Positions 3,154-16,896 of a stretch of 64,000 bases of DNA are shown here, one piece after another. This DNA comes from a bacterium (GTDB taxonomy: Bacteria > Joyebacterota > Joyebacteria > Joyebacterales > Joyebacteraceae): the NCBI GenBank assembly GCA_025774935.1, contig JALGZK010000010.1, forward strand, positions 3,640 through 67,639. The letters are read 5' to 3'. A program made the translations under genes and the position numbers. Position 1 is the stretch's first letter. Each line of letters opens with the position of its first letter. The notes beneath the pieces were generated by a model. The model ran no database searches and was not told the origin of the DNA. It saw nothing but the letters and a program-made list of their open reading frames with translations.

Positions 3154-3933
3154 CTACTTCCTGCGCCTCCTCACCACGCCGACCATGCCGACGATGCCGC
3201 TCCCCAGGAGGATGAGCGTTCCGGGCTCCGGAACGACTCCAGCGCCGTCGATGCCATCGAACGTGCCGTTGAGACTGACGAGGTCGTTGCGGCACCCGAG
3301 CGTCCACTCGAGGCCAATCCCCTCGCCGATCCCGGGGTTCATGAGCAGGCTCTTCGAGATCGTCACTTCGAACACGTACGTTCCGAAGCCGTTCTCCATG
3401 AGGCCGTAGTCGTAGTAGTCGACAGTGGCCGTGCCGAGATCGACGCCGCCCGCGAAGTTCGACGGCCCGGTCTCAGCCACGAAGTGCGTGTTCGCCTGGA
3501 ACCAGTCGGTCTCTTCCGTATCGGCCACCTGTCCGGTCCCACCGTCGATGTCGACACCGAGGTCGTAGGTTCCCCCCCCCAGATCGATGGCCAGGTCACC
3601 CGGGACTACCTGCTCCCCGAGGAACTGGACTCCGTCGGGAATCGGCAGGGACGTCACGACCGCGATGTAGGCGTTGGTTGCGTCGTCATCGAAGTACATA
3701 GCCTCGATGTCGAACTGCTCACCGCCGTACGGACGTCTGCCCAGGTGTGTGCTCCAGTTGTCGTCGGCGAAGTACTCGGCCGTCTCCGATGTCGGCGTCC
3801 AGTCGTGGGTGAAGTCGCCGAATCTGTCGACGGCCAGCTCCACTCCGAACCAATCGGAGAGGAGCGCCGCCCCGGCGGGAACCGCCGAGAGCAGCAAGAG
3901 CACGCCGACGCCGAGGATCAGAAGTCGTCTCAT
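3154..3933 (-). CDS. PEP-CTERM sorting-domain protein (putative exosortase substrate)
   Basis: ORF 3154..4032; start at internal ATG (MRRLLILGVGVLLLLSAVPAGAA signal peptide) with AGGAGG about 7 nt upstream. C-terminus VPEPGTLILLGSGIVGMVGVVRRRRK is VPEP + hydrophobic helix + Arg/Lys tail; Gly/Asp/Thr-rich body. Confidence 0.85.
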   Translation of the reverse strand: MRRLLILGVGVLLLLSAVPAGAALLSDWFGVELAVDRFGDFTHDWTPTSETAEYFADDNWSTHLGRRPYGGEQFDIEAMYFDDDATNAYIAVVTSLPIPDGVQFLGEQVVPGDLAIDLGGGTYDLGVDIDGGTGQVADTEETDWFQANTHFVAETGPSNFAGGVDLGTATVDYYDYGLMENGFGTYVFEVTISKSLLMNPGIGEGIGLEWTLGCRNDLVSLNGTFDGIDGAGVVPEPGTLILLGSGIVGMVGVVRRRRK

Positions 3934-4332
3934 GGCATGCCTCCTGTGAGGAAGGACAATGGAATCATGATCATGAACGCAAAGAACACCAACGCCGCTA
4001 CTGCCACTGCTATGCCCGCTCTCATGCGTCACCTCTGGTTGCCAGCTCTTGGTGTCGGTGCACGAGGTGTTTTCCTTGACAACTTCAATAGTATCACAAG
4101 TAGCCAGCCCTTGACAAGTGCTTTTGTTGGTGCATTTGTCATTTGATGGCTAACTTGTTATCTCATGGTCTTTTACGGGGTCGTTCGGTCGTGAGGGGCT
4201 CAAGGGGCGGGGCTGGGAACCCTCAGCGGGCGGCCCCTGGGGCCCCATTCACGGTCCCCCCGGGCCCCTAACGACGTCGCCCGCGGCCGGAGGGGCGGCC
4301 GCGGGCGGGTAGCGTAGGGGTGGCTGTGCCGG

Positions 4333-8518: not shown

Positions 8519-9283
8519 CTAGAACTTGATGGCGAACCCGACCGTTGATCCGTCCGGCGTGAGTGCGGCGTAGAACCCGGACGGCTCAGCGCCGAGCTGG
8601 CTCACCGTGGGAGCCTCGCTGGTCGGCGGCGAGATCATGAAGGCGTCGACCACGTTGATCGCCCAGATTCCGATGGCCGCATACATCCAGACGTCGCGCT
8701 TCTGCTGCCAGTCCTCGGCGTCGCTGTATGTCGATTCCACCTCTTCCCACGCGAGCTCGATCTCCTCGATCTGGGTCGCGTCCAGGTAGTCGTCGTACGC
8801 CTCTTCGTACGTGTCCTTCGCGTCCACGTAGTTCGACTGCGTCCAGACGAGCCCGCCGAGCGCCACCGCCTCCGCGATGAAGAAGAAGGCTCCCTTCGCT
8901 GCCTGGTCGGCGTAGACCTGTCCCCATCCAGGGATGATGACCGAGCGGAATCCGGCCCCGGACGCGGTCTTCCGCGTGAGACGGATCTCGATCTCCTCCA
9001 CCGTGGTCGCCGACAGCACAGTGACCCCCGTCCACTCCTCGTACCCGGTCATGCGTGCTCGGATCTCGTACGTCCCGGAGAGACCGCGCTCGAGCCGCCA
9101 GGGAGTCACGCCCCGAAGGGCATGGTCTCCGAGGAGCTCGACCACGGCTCCCGAGGGAACCGAGGTGATGACTACGCCTCCCCCGGTCGCGTTCGCGGCC
9201 GGCTGCGCCGTGGAGTCCCCGACGAGGGGAAGCGCGAGCAGGAGGATCGCGAGGACTGGGAGACCCAGTGGTCTGAGAGACAT
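8519..9283 (-). CDS. PEGA-domain protein with DUF5683-like C-terminal region
   Basis: ORF 8519..9502; start at internal ATG (MSLRPLGLPVLAILLLALPLVG signal peptide) with AAGGAG about 6 nt upstream; PEGA-like VVITSVPSGAVVELLGDHALRGVTPW...GTYEIRARMTGYEEW, then IIPGWGQVYADQAAKGAFFF. Confidence 0.7.
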   Translation of the reverse strand: MSLRPLGLPVLAILLLALPLVGDSTAQPAANATGGGVVITSVPSGAVVELLGDHALRGVTPWRLERGLSGTYEIRARMTGYEEWTGVTVLSATTVEEIEIRLTRKTASGAGFRSVIIPGWGQVYADQAAKGAFFFIAEAVALGGLVWTQSNYVDAKDTYEEAYDDYLDATQIEEIELAWEEVESTYSDAEDWQQKRDVWMYAAIGIWAINVVDAFMISPPTSEAPTVSQLGAEPSGFYAALTPDGSTVGFAIKF

Positions 9284-9371
9284 GTGCGACTCCTTCTGGT
9301 CTGTCTGTCGGCCTCGTCCGCCGCTCTCGACCGGGACAACCGGCCAAAGGCGGGCCGCGGCGATTCTATGG

Positions 9372-10853
9372 TCACCCTTCGGTGCTGTCAAGGTCACCCG
9401 GACCGCGAGCGGCGCGCGGGCGGCTGTCGCTCGGGTCGAATCCCTCGGAACGCCCCGCTTCCCGCGGTTTTCTTCTTGCGAGTGACTTGAATCCTGTGAC
9501 ATCGATTTCGTATTTTCGAATGAGATCGTAGACGGTCGACCGGCTCACGCCGATCGAACGGGCCGCACGAGAGACGTTGCCGGCGGCCCGCCTGAGCGCG
9601 TCGACGACGATCTCGTGTTCCAGTGCGTCCTTCGCTTCACCGAGTGTCTGCGCGCGCCGTTCAGTCTCGGAGTCGAGCCCGAGGTCGGCCGCCGTGAGCC
9701 TGTGACCGGATGACATGACGACCGCGCGCTTGACCCGGTTCTCCAGCTCGGGGATGTTCCCGGGCCACTCGTGCGCCATCATCGCCCGCACCGCCGACCG
9801 GGTGAACCCCGACAACCTCCGCCCGTGCTCGGAGGCGCAGCGCTCGAGGAGGTCCTCCGCGAGAAGGGCGATGTCCTCGCCCCGCTCTCTGAGCGGGGGC
9901 AGCGTGACCGTCACCACGCTCAACTGATAGTAGAGGTCCTCCCGGAACCCGCCTTCCGCGACGACCTCTTCCAGATCGTCATCGGCGGCAGCTATGATCC
10001 TGACGTCCGCCTTGATCGGATCGTGCGGGCCTTTCCGCTCGATCTCTCCCGACTGAAGGAACGCGGAGAGCCGAGCCTGAAGATGCTGCGACAGCTCGTC
10101 GACTCCTACGACGAACAGCGTCCCGCCGTCGGCCTGTTCGATTCGGCCCGGCATCTTCTCCGCGCCGTTGAACGTCCCGTTCCCGTTGCCGTTTCCGAAG
10201 ACCTCGGCCTCGAGGTACTCGGACGGCGTCGCGCGCAGGTCGACAGCGACGAAGGGCCCTCGCGAGCGGCGACTCAGGTGGTGGATTCCTCGGGCGATGA
10301 GCTCCCTTCCGGTTCCTCGTTCGCCCACGAGAAGCACGCCGACTTCGGTCGCGGCGACCTTCCTGGCGGAGGAGAACACGTCCTGCATGGCCTCACAGGT
10401 CCCCGCCAGGCTGTCGAGGCGCTCGACGCCCGAGAGACGGTCCGGAACGGCGTCCGCGGCCGCCTCCAGCTCCTGGATCCTGAGCGCGCGCTTCACGAGG
10501 ACCCCGAACTCGTCGATGTCGAAGGGCTTCACGCAACAGTCGCACGCTCCGAGCTCGATGGCGCGGACGGCGAGGTCGCGGTCCCCGCTCGGGGCGACCA
10601 CGATGATCTTGAGCCTGAGCCTGGCCTTCCGCGCCAGCCGGAGGAGCTCGAGCTCCTCGCCGGAGCCCTCTTCGCCGCGCTCCAGCGTGCCGTCGAGCGT
10701 CATCACGTCCGGGCGGAACCGGCGGACGGCCTCGATGGCACCGGCGATCGTGTCGGAGGCGCACACGTCGTAGTCGCGCGCGAGACCTTCCCGGAGCAGC
10801 CTCCGGGTGACCTCGTCGCCTTCCACGATCAGGACTCTCTTGCGCTCGGACAC
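9372..10853 (-). CDS. prsR: Sigma-54-dependent response regulator (NtrC/AtoC family; PrsR-like PEP-CTERM-box regulator)
   Basis: 493 aa, GTG start with GGAGG upstream; receiver domain (VLIVEGDE...DVMTLDG), AAA+ sigma-54 interaction domain (LLVGERGTGRELIARGIH, GAFxGA-like FNGAEKMPG, EWPGNIPELEN), C-terminal Fis-type HTH (GNVSRAARSIGVSRSTVYDLIRK). Confidence 0.85.
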   Translation of the reverse strand: MSERKRVLIVEGDEVTRRLLREGLARDYDVCASDTIAGAIEAVRRFRPDVMTLDGTLERGEEGSGEELELLRLARKARLRLKIIVVAPSGDRDLAVRAIELGACDCCVKPFDIDEFGVLVKRALRIQELEAAADAVPDRLSGVERLDSLAGTCEAMQDVFSSARKVAATEVGVLLVGERGTGRELIARGIHHLSRRSRGPFVAVDLRATPSEYLEAEVFGNGNGNGTFNGAEKMPGRIEQADGGTLFVVGVDELSQHLQARLSAFLQSGEIERKGPHDPIKADVRIIAAADDDLEEVVAEGGFREDLYYQLSVVTVTLPPLRERGEDIALLAEDLLERCASEHGRRLSGFTRSAVRAMMAHEWPGNIPELENRVKRAVVMSSGHRLTAADLGLDSETERRAQTLGEAKDALEHEIVVDALRRAAGNVSRAARSIGVSRSTVYDLIRKYEIDVTGFKSLARRKPREAGRSEGFDPSDSRPRAARGPGDLDSTEG

Positions 10854-10956: not shown

Positions 10957-12486
10957 CTACTCGGGCAGGGCCTCCAGCTGCCGGGCCGCCTCTTCCGCCC
11001 ACGGCTCTCCGGCGTACGTGCTCGCGATGTCCTCGAGCACCTCGCGCGCACTGGCGAAGTCCTCGAGCTGCCTCGTGTACAGATCGGCGGCCTGCAGCTT
11101 CATGATCGGCGCGTCCTCCGAGTCGGGCAGAAGCTCCGACGTCTCTAGGAGGATCCGCGCCGCCGCCTCCCACTTCTCCTGTCGGATCCGCGCGTCGACG
11201 AGGTACCCGCGGGCGGCAATCTCGGCCGACGTCCCGGCGTACTCCCTGATCACGCGCGTGTACTGCTCCACGGCCCGCTCGAGCGTGCTGGCCCCGACCT
11301 CCTCGTCACCGCTCTGGACGTACCGGTCGGACACGTGGATGAGTGCGCGGAGGCCGTACAGCGTGGTCGGGTACTCGCGCGCGAGAACGCTGTACTGCGC
11401 CGCCGCGCGATCCCAGTTCCCGGTCGCCTCGAAGCTCATCGCCAGGTACTGCATCGCCGTGGCGCTCACGACCTGCTCGGTCGTAAACTCGTCGATGACT
11501 CGTGAGAGGCGCCGCCGCGCGTCGTCGTGGCGCCCCGCGGCGAGGTCCTGTCTCGCGAGCGAGACGGCCGCCGTCGCGCCCGACACGTCGTCCCCGTACT
11601 CGCTCTCGACCCTCTCGTAGTACTCGCGCGCGAGACCGTTGCGCCCGAGTCTCGTCTCGTAGATCTCGGCCAGTCCGAGCCAGAGGGGCGCGCGGTTCTC
11701 GGGCGTTCCGAAGTCGCGGTCGAGCTCCTCGTACACCCTGGCCGCTTCCTCCCAGCGGTCCTCGAGCCCGTAGCTCTCCGCCGTGAGCGACGTCGCGAGC
11801 TCCGCGGTGGGCGATTCCGGCCACTCCGCGATCCAACGGGCGTAGTACTCCCTGGCACGGTCGGACCACGCCGCCGCCTCGGCCGCATCTCCCCGAGCGC
11901 GGTAGACCGCCGCGACCGACAGGGGCGCGCGGAGGATCCGCGTGTCGGGACTCGACTCCGGGTCGCGGGCGGGCTGCCAGTCCTCAATGAGCCCCGCGTA
12001 GACCGCCACGGCCTCGGGCCACCTGTCCTCGCGCCGCTCGACGGCGCCGAGCGCGAGCGTCGCATCGATCGCAAGGCCCCTCTCGAGCGCGTAGCTGTCT
12101 CGCACGGACGAGTAGAGGCGCCGCGCCTCGTCGAAGTCCCCGCGGTCCATCGCGAGCTGCCCGAGCGCGAGCCTGCTGTGCCCGGAGATGCGGGCGATCT
12201 GCCTGGCGACCTCGGAGACGCCCTCCGAATCCCCCTCGGGTGGCGGGAACGCCCGCGTGATGTTCCGGTACTCGTCCTCGACGCGGGCGCGCATCTCGTC
12301 GGTGTTCATACCGGGGTTGACGCTCACCGCGCGCATGAGGCTGCTCGCGCGCCAGGCCATTCTCTCGGCCTCGTACCTGTCCCTGATCTCCCTCGATGAT
12401 TCGCATCCGACGCACACGGCCACGACCACGATCAGGAGGACCGCCGCGAGCCGCCTTGCTGCGCGAGTGTCTCTCAGTGTCATCAT
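10957..12486 (-). CDS. TPR-repeat lipoprotein (PrsT-like)
   Basis: ORF 10957..13209; start at ATGATG 12481-12486 (MMTLRDTRAARRLAAVLLIVVVAVCVGC, lipobox) with GGAGGG upstream; TPR-like helical repeats throughout. The longer N-terminal extension in the track is Arg-rich and rejected. Confidence 0.75.
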   Translation of the reverse strand: MMTLRDTRAARRLAAVLLIVVVAVCVGCESSREIRDRYEAERMAWRASSLMRAVSVNPGMNTDEMRARVEDEYRNITRAFPPPEGDSEGVSEVARQIARISGHSRLALGQLAMDRGDFDEARRLYSSVRDSYALERGLAIDATLALGAVERREDRWPEAVAVYAGLIEDWQPARDPESSPDTRILRAPLSVAAVYRARGDAAEAAAWSDRAREYYARWIAEWPESPTAELATSLTAESYGLEDRWEEAARVYEELDRDFGTPENRAPLWLGLAEIYETRLGRNGLAREYYERVESEYGDDVSGATAAVSLARQDLAAGRHDDARRRLSRVIDEFTTEQVVSATAMQYLAMSFEATGNWDRAAAQYSVLAREYPTTLYGLRALIHVSDRYVQSGDEEVGASTLERAVEQYTRVIREYAGTSAEIAARGYLVDARIRQEKWEAAARILLETSELLPDSEDAPIMKLQAADLYTRQLEDFASAREVLEDIASTYAGEPWAEEAARQLEALPE

Positions 12487-13367
12487 GGCCGTCCCTCCCC
12501 TCCGGCGCCGGGAACGGCTGCGCCCGGCGCTTCGTCCTGCGTCAGGTGGAGGAAGAGCCGCGTGATGCCGCCGAGCGTCACGTAGGTCGCGAAGAAGAGG
12601 ACGACGACCCAGATCACCATGAGGAGCGGCACGAGCACCGGGGAGAACGTGTGCGCGATCGTGGCGCTCTGCCTCCACAGCCAGAGCGGCAGGATCTCGA
12701 GCGCGGCCGGCATGGCCACGAGCAGGAACGTGGCGACCGGGGTCCTCCCGAAGAGCACCAGGCTGCCTCCGACCGCCGCGCGCACGCTCCTTCCCGCGAG
12801 CACGATGTAGGGTGCCGTGTAGACGAGGACGGCCTGGACGAAGAGGACGACGAGGATCGTCGATCCCCTCACCACCCGGAACGTCCTCGGGCTCTCCTCC
12901 GCGAGATACCCGAAGAACGCGTAGGACGTCCTCGTCACGATCTGAGCGAGACCGACGGCGATCACCGCCGCGACCACGAGCGACCAGTACCTCGACGACG
13001 CCCGGCTCCACGCCTCCCCGAACCCCACCCGCCTCCGCTGATAGAAGGTGCCGAAGAGCACGATCCCCGTCGCCGCGGTCACCGCTCCCAGGAAGACGGC
13101 CAGGAACGGGTCGAGCTCGCCCAGCCCGGCCCTGAGCACGAGGAAGTTGTTCGGGTAGTGCAGCACGGACTCCCCGAACCGCCACCTCAGGAGCGGCACC
13201 ATGAACCACGAGACGACCGGGTACGCGAACCCGCCGATCGCGGCCAGGATCGCGGCCTGCCCCGCGGCGTAGATGGCGAACGGGAGGAGCGCCACGCGCC
13301 GCGAAAACGCCCTGAACGTCTCCACCCAGCCCCAGATGAGAGCATTGATCTGATCGATGAGGCCCAT
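12483..13367 (-). CDS. Uncharacterised polytopic membrane protein embedded in the exosortase operon
   Basis: 294 aa with about 7-8 hydrophobic helices; stop TGA overlaps the TPR-lipoprotein ATG (ATGA); no recognisable family motif. Confidence 0.65.
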   Translation of the reverse strand: MGLIDQINALIWGWVETFRAFSRRVALLPFAIYAAGQAAILAAIGGFAYPVVSWFMVPLLRWRFGESVLHYPNNFLVLRAGLGELDPFLAVFLGAVTAATGIVLFGTFYQRRRVGFGEAWSRASSRYWSLVVAAVIAVGLAQIVTRTSYAFFGYLAEESPRTFRVVRGSTILVVLFVQAVLVYTAPYIVLAGRSVRAAVGGSLVLFGRTPVATFLLVAMPAALEILPLWLWRQSATIAHTFSPVLVPLLMVIWVVVLFFATYVTLGGITRLFLHLTQDEAPGAAVPGAGGEGRP

Positions 13368-13463: not shown

Positions 13464-14108
13464 TCAGCCCTCCCCGGCGAACACGAAGAGCTCCGGAAGG
13501 CGCACGAGCGCGGCCTCCGAGAAGTCCTTCAGCACCTCCATGGCGCCGTCGAAGTCACCGTCCCTCACGACGGTCGACACTCTAACGAACGCTCCGTAGG
13601 TCACGTTCGACACGATCCCCGACGCTGCCATCCGCGTCATGAACTTGTCGCGGTCGGCCGTCGCCAGATCCCCCGCCGTGTACCACCAGTAGACCGCGAG
13701 CCGGCGGACGCCCTGCTGCTCGACGAGCACCCAGTTGGCGTCGAAGCCGCCGTCTTTCCTCCAGAGGGGCTCGAGCCCCGAGTCGACGTCCGTCCATCCC
13801 TGGGACCGGTAGCATACGAGCGGCTCGTGCGCGCCGTACCGGTCGTTCTGATGGAAGATGATGACGAACCATATCCAGTCGCCCACGTCGTTCGTGTACC
13901 GCCGCGCCAGCGTGTCCGTCGCCTCGAGTTCCTCGTAGACGACGTCTTCGAACGACAGATCGACGCTGCGCCATCCTCCGAGCTGCGCCGGGAACGCTCC
14001 GAGCGAGCCCGCCTCGAGCTCCATCCTGTCGGGCGGGTTCAGGTGCACGTAGAAGGCGCCCGCCCCGAGGAGCGCGACCACGACGATCGTTCCGAATGAG
14101 GTCCTCAC
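13464..14108 (-). CDS. epsI: EpsI-family exosortase-associated protein
   Basis: 214 aa; N-terminal membrane anchor (IVVVALLGAGAFYV) then periplasmic domain; immediately downstream of exosortase with ATGA start/stop overlap at 14105-14108. Confidence 0.7.
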   Translation of the reverse strand: MRTSFGTIVVVALLGAGAFYVHLNPPDRMELEAGSLGAFPAQLGGWRSVDLSFEDVVYEELEATDTLARRYTNDVGDWIWFVIIFHQNDRYGAHEPLVCYRSQGWTDVDSGLEPLWRKDGGFDANWVLVEQQGVRRLAVYWWYTAGDLATADRDKFMTRMAASGIVSNVTYGAFVRVSTVVRDGDFDGAMEVLKDFSEAALVRLPELFVFAGEG

Positions 14109-15043
14109 GCGCCCCTCCCCTCAGGGGCGGTCTCTTCCCCCTCGCACGTCTCACATCTCAGGAGCTTCCGCACCACCACGAGTCCGACGAACGCGAACAT
14201 GAACAGCAGGAACCCTGAGAAGTCGTGGAAGAACCCGAGCGCGGCGTCGATGCCCCAGACGTGGGCGACGAGACAGAGCGCGGTGATCCTGAGCATGTTC
14301 CCGGCGATCGCGAGCGGCACGCTGACCGCGACGATGACGAGCCGCTTCCACGCGGCGCCCGCCGTCAGATACGCGAAGAGCGTTCCGAGGGCCACGAGCG
14401 CGATGAGCGACCTGAGCCCGCTGCAGGGGTCCGCGATCCGAAGCGACCCGGCCGGGACGTGGATCGTCATGCCCGAGCGGACGAGTGGCACGCCGAGCTT
14501 CGCGGCGAGTGCACTCCCTGAGCGCGCCGCGAAGACCTTGAGGTTGAAACTCAGCACGTTCATGAGGAACGGCGGCCACGGCAGCATGAACACGAGGAAC
14601 GCGAGCGGGAACCAGATCACCCTCGTCGCCCGACCCCCGAAGAAGAAGAGCGACAGGCCGAAGAGCATGAGGACGAACGAGTAGCCCTGCGTCATGAAGA
14701 TGCCCGCACGGATCGACACCACGTTCCCTACGAGCGCGAGAGCGATGATCGCGATGCCCCAAGCCGTCCCCGCCCTCACCGCATCCACGAACCTCTTCCG
14801 CTCGCGCCACAGGAGGAAGAGGACGATCGGCGGGATCAGGAACCCGTGCGAGTAGTTCGGCGAGGACATCCAGGTCCGCCAGAGCGTCGGGAAGACCGGG
14901 TAGTACACGATCGCAACGAGGACGGCCGCCACCGCGAAGCGCGCGAGCTGCCGCGCGGCGAGCGTCCCCCGAGGGGTCGCGCCCCCGCTACCGGTCGCGT
15001 TCCGGAGCTCCGCCCCGTCTCGTCTGTCGTTCCCGGTCGTCAA
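14105..15043 (-). CDS. xrtA: Exosortase (XrtA/EpsH family)
   Basis: ORF 14105..15388; polytopic membrane protein with exosortase-like motifs (ADPCSGLRSL, GNMLRITALCLV). Start assigned to TTG 15041-15043 with GGAGG about 5 nt upstream, overlapping the upstream TGA (TTGA); the Arg-rich 115 codons before it are rejected. Confidence 0.8.
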   Translation of the reverse strand: MTTGNDRRDGAELRNATGSGGATPRGTLAARQLARFAVAAVLVAIVYYPVFPTLWRTWMSSPNYSHGFLIPPIVLFLLWRERKRFVDAVRAGTAWGIAIIALALVGNVVSIRAGIFMTQGYSFVLMLFGLSLFFFGGRATRVIWFPLAFLVFMLPWPPFLMNVLSFNLKVFAARSGSALAAKLGVPLVRSGMTIHVPAGSLRIADPCSGLRSLIALVALGTLFAYLTAGAAWKRLVIVAVSVPLAIAGNMLRITALCLVAHVWGIDAALGFFHDFSGFLLFMFAFVGLVVVRKLLRCETCEGEETAPEGRGA

Positions 15044-16896
15044 CGCTGCTCCTCCGTGCTCAGGCGGGGCCCGCTCTCCTCCCCTCGGGACCTCCTGAGG
15101 GCTCCGAACGTCCCCAGGAGGATCCTGAGATCGAGGAGGAGCGAGCAGTTCTCGACGTAGAACCTGTCGAGCCTGACCTTCTCCTCGAGGTCGATCTCGT
15201 CCCTCCCATTGATCTGCGCCCAGCCGGTGAGGCCGGGCCGGACCAGGTCGACCCCGACCTGGCGCCTGAGTTCGATCAGCTCGTACTGGTTGTAGAGGGC
15301 GGGCCGCGGCCCGACCACGCTCATCTCGCCGCGGAGCACGTTCACGAGGTTCGGGTACTCGTCGGCGCTCGTCCTCCTCAGGAACCACCCGAACTTCGTC
15401 ACGCAGCCGTCCTTCATCTGGCTGTGGTTCATCAGGTCTGTCGCGAGATCCGGCGTCTCGCGGTGCATCGTTCGGAGCTTCAGGATCGTGAACTCCTGTG
15501 AGTAGACGCCGATCCGCCTCTGCGTGAAGTGCGCGTGCCCCGGCGAGTCGAGCCTGACGGCGATCGCCAGGAGCGCGTGGAGGGGCGCTCCCACGATCAG
15601 GATGCCGAATGCCGTGAGGACGTCTAGCAAGTACTTGACCCCGAGGTAGTAGCGGAACTTGAGGTGGCTTCCGCAGAGCGCGCGCTCTGATGCGAGGATC
15701 TCCTCGAGAAGCTCCTCGAGCTTGCCGGCGAGGGCGGTCCTCGAGTACGCGTCCTCGACGAAGACCCGACCGCTCCTCCCGAGCGTGTGGCGCATCTCGG
15801 CGTCACCAAGGAGCGTCTTCACGGCCTCGGCGAGGCCTCGCCCGTCACCCGGCTTCGTCACGATGCCGCTGCCGGCACGTTCGACGATCTCCCGCGCGTC
15901 GCCCTCCACCGCGGCGACTACTGGCTTCCCGCACGCCATGTAGTCGAAGAGCTTCACCGGGATCGTGCTCGCCGAGAACTCCCCGCTCCTCGTCGTCGCG
16001 AGGCAGAGAGCTGAGCGGTGCACGAGCTCGCTGAGCTCGTCCGGCTGCTTGCTCGGAAGGAACTCGACGTTCCTGAGACCCCGCCCGTCGACCTGGCGGA
16101 CGAGGTCCTGCTTCGCGACGCCGTCGCCCACCAGGACGAACCTCGCGTCGCTCTCGTCCCTCAGGATCTCGGCGGCTTCGAGGATCACGTCCATCCCGTG
16201 AACGAGCCCGTGCGTCCCCGAGTAGATGACCGTCCGGCCGTCTCCGCCGTTGCCAGCGGGTCCTCCGGCGGCCGGAGCGAAAAGCTCCGTGTCCGCCCCG
16301 TTCGTGATGAGCGAGATCCTGTGCCGCGGGATGCCACGCTCGAGCATCAGTCGCTCCATACCGGGCGTGACGGCCACGAGCCTCGCTGCCCGGCGGTAGA
16401 GGAACTGCTCGAGGCTCTCCGCGGCGCGGATGGCCCGCCGGCTCCTCAGCTCGCCGAGCTCGACGGCCGCGTGTGGCCAGTAGTCCCTGAGATCGAGCAC
16501 GAACGGGACGCCACGGACGAGTCCGAGGAACCACGCCGTCAGTCCGAGGAAGAGCGGCGGAGAACTCACGAGGACCAGATCGCACTTCCCCGCGGCGCAC
16601 CCGCCGACCGCGGCGGTGATCATGAACGAGAGCTGGTTCGCAACGCGGGTGAAGAACGTCTTCCTGGGCGTCGCGAAGAGGTAGCACCTCAGGATGCGGA
16701 CGCCGTCTACCTCCTCGCGGCAAGCGAGCTTCCTCCGGTAGCGGGGCTGCTTCACGCCGCTCGGGTGGTTGGGCATGCCCGTCACGACCGTCACGGCGTG
16801 GCCCCGCTTCGCGAGATTCGTCGCGAAGTGATAGGCCCGAAGCGGCGCCGCGCCGGTCTCCGGCGGGTAGTACTGTGTCAGGAAGAGGATCCTCAT
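15040..16896 (-). CDS. Bifunctional GT4 glycosyltransferase / PglC-like phosphoglycosyltransferase (Bac_transf) fusion
   Basis: 618 aa; N-terminal GT4 ([35 protein letters not shown]...), C-terminal ~190 aa sugar-transferase domain (KYLLDVLTAFGILIVGAPL...SVVGPRPALYNQYELI...RPGLTGWAQINGR). Confidence 0.85.
   Translation of the reverse strand: MRILFLTQYYPPETGAAPLRAYHFATNLAKRGHAVTVVTGMPNHPSGVKQPRYRRKLACREEVDGVRILRCYLFATPRKTFFTRVANQLSFMITAAVGGCAAGKCDLVLVSSPPLFLGLTAWFLGLVRGVPFVLDLRDYWPHAAVELGELRSRRAIRAAESLEQFLYRRAARLVAVTPGMERLMLERGIPRHRISLITNGADTELFAPAAGGPAGNGGDGRTVIYSGTHGLVHGMDVILEAAEILRDESDARFVLVGDGVAKQDLVRQVDGRGLRNVEFLPSKQPDELSELVHRSALCLATTRSGEFSASTIPVKLFDYMACGKPVVAAVEGDAREIVERAGSGIVTKPGDGRGLAEAVKTLLGDAEMRHTLGRSGRVFVEDAYSRTALAGKLEELLEEILASERALCGSHLKFRYYLGVKYLLDVLTAFGILIVGAPLHALLAIAVRLDSPGHAHFTQRRIGVYSQEFTILKLRTMHRETPDLATDLMNHSQMKDGCVTKFGWFLRRTSADEYPNLVNVLRGEMSVVGPRPALYNQYELIELRRQVGVDLVRPGLTGWAQINGRDEIDLEEKVRLDRFYVENCSLLLDLRILLGTFGALRRSRGEESGPRLSTEEQR

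Follow-up and report, generated by a model that had tools for sequence, protein, structure and literature searches.

A conserved polytopic membrane protein that looks like an undescribed component of the PEP-CTERM/exosortase system

Introduction

What does a membrane protein encoded between epsI and the gene of a TPR lipoprotein contribute to the exosortase locus in which it is found? The question is raised by one such protein, here called X, in a 64,000-nucleotide stretch of bacterial DNA (the window), which a sequence-only reading had put forward as a candidate accessory component of the exosortase. To our knowledge, the working of exosortases is largely unclear, in that neither the attachment target of the cleaved PEP-CTERM proteins nor the roles of EpsI and PrsT have been established. 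X looks like a conserved, undescribed component of this known PEP-CTERM/exosortase system. Coupled to a PrsT-like lipoprotein, it is a concrete and testable addition between the sorting genes (exosortase and EpsI) and the regulatory genes (PrsK and PrsR). PrsK, PrsR and PrsT have been described as a co-distributed trio, for which the stimulus of PrsK was stated to be unknown (Haft et al. 2006, PMC1569441).

Results

X is a real gene in an exosortase locus

The genes for the exosortase, EpsI and X follow one another in one direction with overlapping or short junctions. The overlapping string is opened by the gene of a GT4-Bac_transf fusion (15040..16896), whose stop is overlapped as TTGA by the probable start of the exosortase gene, a TTG at 15043. 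The GTG start of epsI overlaps the exosortase stop, and a gap of 96 nt separates epsI from X. At the far end of X, its TGA (12485..12483) overlaps the ATG of the TPR gene (12486..12484) as ATGA, as read from the sequence. The position between epsI and the TPR gene, together with this overlap, had been claimed before, and both coordinates and sequence agree with it. The gene of a sigma-54-dependent regulator lies 103 nt after the TPR gene with no histidine kinase between them, and no match to a PrsK-like kinase was found anywhere in the window. A PEP-CTERM protein encoded elsewhere in the window is, judging from its sequence, a candidate substrate of the exosortase.

Table 1. Coordinates of X and of the genes discussed with it, in positions of the window.
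Feature	Position	Strand	Description
PEP-CTERM protein	3154..4032	-	PF07589 26.9 bits (cutoff 20.7); C-terminal end VPEPGTLILLGSGIVGMVGVVRRRRK
PEGA/DUF5683 membrane protein	8519..9502	-	Pfam
Sigma-54-dependent response regulator, PrsR type	9372..10853	-	Response_reg + Sigma54_activat + HTH_8
TPR lipoprotein in PrsT position	10957..12486	-	509 aa; signal peptide, lipobox-like VCVGC, several TPR families
X, unnamed polytopic membrane protein	12483..13367	-	294 aa, ATG start; CysZ/CTL-like fold (predicted)
EpsI (DUF3485)	13464..14108	-	214 aa; TIGR02914 89 bits (cutoff 42.8); PF11984 108 bits
Exosortase	14105..15043	-	~312 aa; PF09721 226 bits; TIGR02602 199 bits
GT4 glycosyltransferase fused to polyprenyl-phosphate sugar-phosphate transferase (Bac_transf)	15040..16896	-	Pfam + NCBIfam

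As the frame of X overlaps a 567-aa plus-strand ORF as well as a 5′ extension of the TPR frame, it could have been a spurious frame in high-GC DNA. This reading was rejected because of the conservation of X and the GC content of its third codon positions, which is 0.93 compared with 0.49 at second positions. Full-length homologues (n = 21) are 45-85% identical to X, the family comprises 219 representative clusters at E<=1e-3, and some of its members come from genomes of only 37-44% GC. X is thus confirmed as a real gene and not a high-GC artefact. Its ATG is preceded at about 6 nt by an AAAGGA-type ribosome-binding site, as read from the sequence.

X has a CysZ-like predicted fold and motifs of its own

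Both the hydropathy profile and the AlphaFold model of X contain about six hydrophobic helical segments, which bears out its earlier description as polytopic. Also as described, X lacks an assignable motif, since the protein in the window gave no Pfam and no NCBIfam match at E<=0.01. A comparison of 79 family members with NCBIfam and Pfam returned scattered sub-threshold matches, none of which reached a curated exosortase-associated family, and when the 79-sequence alignment served as a profile to search a word-indexed protein database, almost only the close X family came back.

The predicted structure of X was more informative. The closest folds to the model found by Foldseek in the PDB were those of CysZ (3TX3), CTL1 (7WWB) and yeast PNS1 (9F63), with high probability but E>0.2, and comparison of the predicted structure shows that the model has the three-dimensional fold of CysZ. 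Identity to structures of the CysZ/CTL class is 5-10%. CysZ itself, a bacterial sulfate permease of the EI24/CysZ family, is alike in fold at 5% identity, and the motifs described below are own to X. Kinship with CysZ at the sequence level was ruled out, as the 79-sequence profile, aligned to E. coli CysZ with hhalign, reached a probability of 1.3% and the family profile had no match among PDB sequences at E<=10. EI24/CysZ (PF07264) likewise had no Pfam match in X or in the 79 family members. The SLC44 protein CTL1 and PNS1 differ from X in being eukaryotic and larger, with extra helices or domains, at 9-10% identity; neither the sequence of X nor its architecture, compared with the full eukaryotic one, places it in the SLC44/CTL family. 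The distribution of lysine and arginine in X misfits a simple 6-TM model drawn from hydropathy and the positive-inside rule, in that two K/R-rich stretches, the loop 231-240 and residues 161-167, fall on its "wrong" side. This pattern may reflect half-penetrating hairpins like those of CysZ.

The fold makes a transport role for X a serious alternative, because the characterised proteins that share it are all described as solute transporters (CysZ of sulfate, CTL1 of choline). X could be a permease of the CysZ/CTL class for small solutes or ions, moving a compound on which the locus depends, such as an exopolysaccharide substituent or an acceptor used by the exosortase, with the TPR protein only a neighbour or regulator. 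We consider this unlikely on the whole, though deserving of attention. The low identity and the missing Pfam and PDB sequence matches argue against it, as do the few conserved polar residues within the hydrophobic helices of X, and transport by the CTL proteins is itself disputed (PMC13160678). Nor does the gene context point to a cargo: no sulfotransferase and no choline- or ethanolamine-related gene is present among the window genes scanned, which lie in the first 30 kb of the window, and the invariant neighbour of X is a TPR lipoprotein rather than a biosynthetic enzyme. A role in sulfate supply, as suggested by the CysZ fold, was rejected, there being no cys gene or sulfotransferase in that same part of the window. 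Unlike CysZ, X is not found beside genes of cysteine or sulfate assimilation; its neighbours in 32 loci are exosortase, TPR, two-component and EPS genes.

Two motifs, G65-E-x-x-L-H70-Y71-P72 and P243-E244, are found family-wide. Conservation is focused on the segments that connect helices (G65, H70, Y71, P72, P243 and E244) and not on polar residues within the hydrophobic cores. Because E66, H70, Y71 and E244 are nearly invariant even in relatives of 20-30% identity, the His/Glu/Tyr cluster could be that of a membrane-embedded hydrolase or transferase with PEP-CTERM proteins or the polymer as its substrate. Such an enzyme seems very improbable to us, since X matches no catalytic family and no enzymatic activity is known for the proteins closest to it in structure. 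We also know of no intramembrane protease or transferase signature that resembles GE..LHYP/PE.

Weak matches within the family raise a further possibility, namely that X handles a lipid-linked substrate. PF10110 (GPDPase_memb), a domain fused to glycerophosphodiester phosphodiesterases, is matched weakly (E<=1, best E 1e-6) by 6 of the 79 members, and DUF7847 by two (best E 0.0018); X of the window matches neither. Both are uncharacterised polytopic membrane domains with weak sequence matches to a minority of the family, and since neither has a known function the link adds no mechanism for X. P0095, a family member of 643 aa encoded in a polysaccharide gene cluster, is a natural fusion of the X domain with a WecA/MraY-type Glycos_transf_4 domain, although this is one fusion only, from one contig of 8.6 kb that stops shortly behind the gene. 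By this account X would act at the membrane interface on intermediates linked to polyprenyl phosphate or to glycerophospholipid, either binding or presenting them; it might provide the exosortase with the lipid or glycan acceptor for attachment, or help the priming sugar-phosphate transferase. A priming transferase of the Bac_transf type is indeed present in nearly every neighbourhood of X. Its presence is not specific, however, because priming transferases are common to any EPS locus, and we judge this explanation to be distinctly unlikely.

The TPR lipoprotein is the sole invariant neighbour of X

A search with a 10-sequence alignment of the family returned related loci, and 32 distinct loci were compared over as much as 10 kb of contig to either side of X. 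In all 31 loci having downstream DNA, an orthologous TPR lipoprotein is encoded after X (160-740 bits with our own HMM), which makes this lipoprotein the one invariant neighbour across the 32 loci compared. The start of the TPR gene overlaps the stop of X by 4 nt in the window as well as in L003, L004, L008, L010 and L031, while the two genes share 1-17 nt in L005, L033 and L034. Of the 32 loci, 22 contain genes for exosortase and/or EpsI, so the co-occurrence check named in the sequence-only reading proved positive. A PrsK-like kinase was found in 14 of the loci surveyed and a sigma-54 regulator in 22. Homologues of X down to 21-29% identity lie within exosortase-EpsI-X-TPR(-PrsK-PrsR) modules in several phyla. 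Because the operon is syntenic as a whole across the related FCB-group candidate phyla that supply most of the loci, these do not amount to 32 independent observations.

While X and TPR are kept together, the remaining module genes are permuted or partly missing. The order exosortase-EpsI-X-TPR-kinase-regulator occurs in L001, L010 and L033-L034, and exosortase-EpsI-X-TPR-Wzy in L005. The pair comes first in L029 (X-TPR-exosortase-EpsI-kinase-regulator) and in L032, where the order is X-(PEP-CTERM mini-gene)-TPR-TPR-exosortase-EpsI-kinase-regulator. X-TPR-PrsK-PrsR without an exosortase is found in L021-L024 and L026-L027; L028 has a split kinase only, and L025 ends inside the TPR gene. L021-L023 and L027 have neither exosortase nor EpsI over ~6 kb to either side, and in these four X-TPR lies directly upstream of PrsK-PrsR. 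The MAGs with such loci are those of KSB1, Calditrichota and "uncultured Cytophagia". The PrsK cutoff (300 bits) is passed by the kinases of L021 (381) and L023 (314), and the PrsR cutoff (502.6) by the regulator of L023 (554).

The X loci resemble the described system of PrsT/PrsK/PrsR and EpsH/EpsI (PMC1569441) in their EPS-locus setting with PEP-CTERM proteins nearby, and they share with it the exosortase, EpsI, TPR lipoprotein, multi-TM histidine kinase and sigma-54 regulator. X has no counterpart in the described system, which is that of Proteobacteria, whereas the hosts of X loci are Eisenbacteria and their allies. The components of the window also fall short of the corresponding models. 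Its exosortase scores 195 bits against the XrtA cutoff of 208, with every NCBIfam exosortase subtype below cutoff, and its regulator 414 bits against 502.6 for PrsR (TIGR02915), with no adjoining kinase. The TPR protein, at 29 bits, is a non-member of the PrsT model (TIGR02917), for which the cutoff is 312; the TPR proteins of X loci are about 500 aa long and score 29-58 bits.

X is best read as a partner of the PrsT-like lipoprotein

With the TPR lipoprotein invariant, exosortase and/or EpsI in 22 of 32 loci and four loci with no exosortase within ~6 kb, X is best read as the partner of the PrsT-like lipoprotein, that is, as belonging to the PEP-CTERM system, where it may act in sorting or in regulation, without being specifically an exosortase subunit. 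The earlier label of exosortase accessory component is partly supported, as regards membership in the system, yet it is too narrow, because the TPR lipoprotein is the only constant neighbour and X-TPR-PrsK-PrsR loci exist with no exosortase within ~6 kb.

We tentatively favour a model in which X is the integral inner-membrane partner of this lipoprotein, translationally coupled to it, and X-TPR is a fixed two-protein unit of the PEP-CTERM/exosortase system. The two proteins would be made together through translational coupling. The CysZ/CTL-type helical bundle of X would sit in the cytoplasmic membrane, where the lipid-anchored periplasmic TPR protein may dock onto it. The pair could then connect the periplasm, as adaptor or relay, with polytopic membrane proteins of the system: the exosortase and EpsI and, in loci that encode it, the multi-TM sensor kinase PrsK. 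Contact or ligand binding might take place at helix ends, where the conserved polar cluster (GE..LHYP and PE) is located. The physical contact between X and the TPR protein, the membrane topology of X and what is relayed are inferred, as is a biochemical role as adaptor or signal relay and not as permease. A purely kinase-input role of X is not general, because no PrsK adjoins X-TPR in the window and in most close Eisenbacteria loci, L001 being an exception.

A bolder form of the partnership would see in X-TPR the core that defines a hitherto unrecognised kind of exosortase/PEP-CTERM system, that of Omnitrophota and FCB-group candidate phyla. X, with its CysZ fold, would then carry out a step that the exosortase model lacks, either bringing in the acceptor onto which the exosortase transfers cleaved PEP-CTERM proteins or giving PrsK its membrane signal input. 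We regard this extension as doubtful.

The X-TPR unit occurs in Eisenbacteria and related candidate phyla, and the X family deserves to be named and given a curated model. This would allow about 200 "hypothetical protein" clusters from Eisenbacteria, Krumholzibacteriota, Zixibacteria, KSB1, Calditrichota and Omnitrophota to be annotated as PEP-CTERM-system associated. X is also a prokaryotic relative, by fold, of CysZ and the CTL proteins that comes with a genomic context, for a fold whose function is debated.

Two other genes of the window recur as well. In L001, L003 and L004 the exosortase gene is likewise preceded upstream by that of a GT4-Bac_transf fusion. The PEGA/DUF5683 gene is found again in neighbourhoods of other lineages (L001, L004, L005 and L031), and L021 has a LIC11435-like gene.

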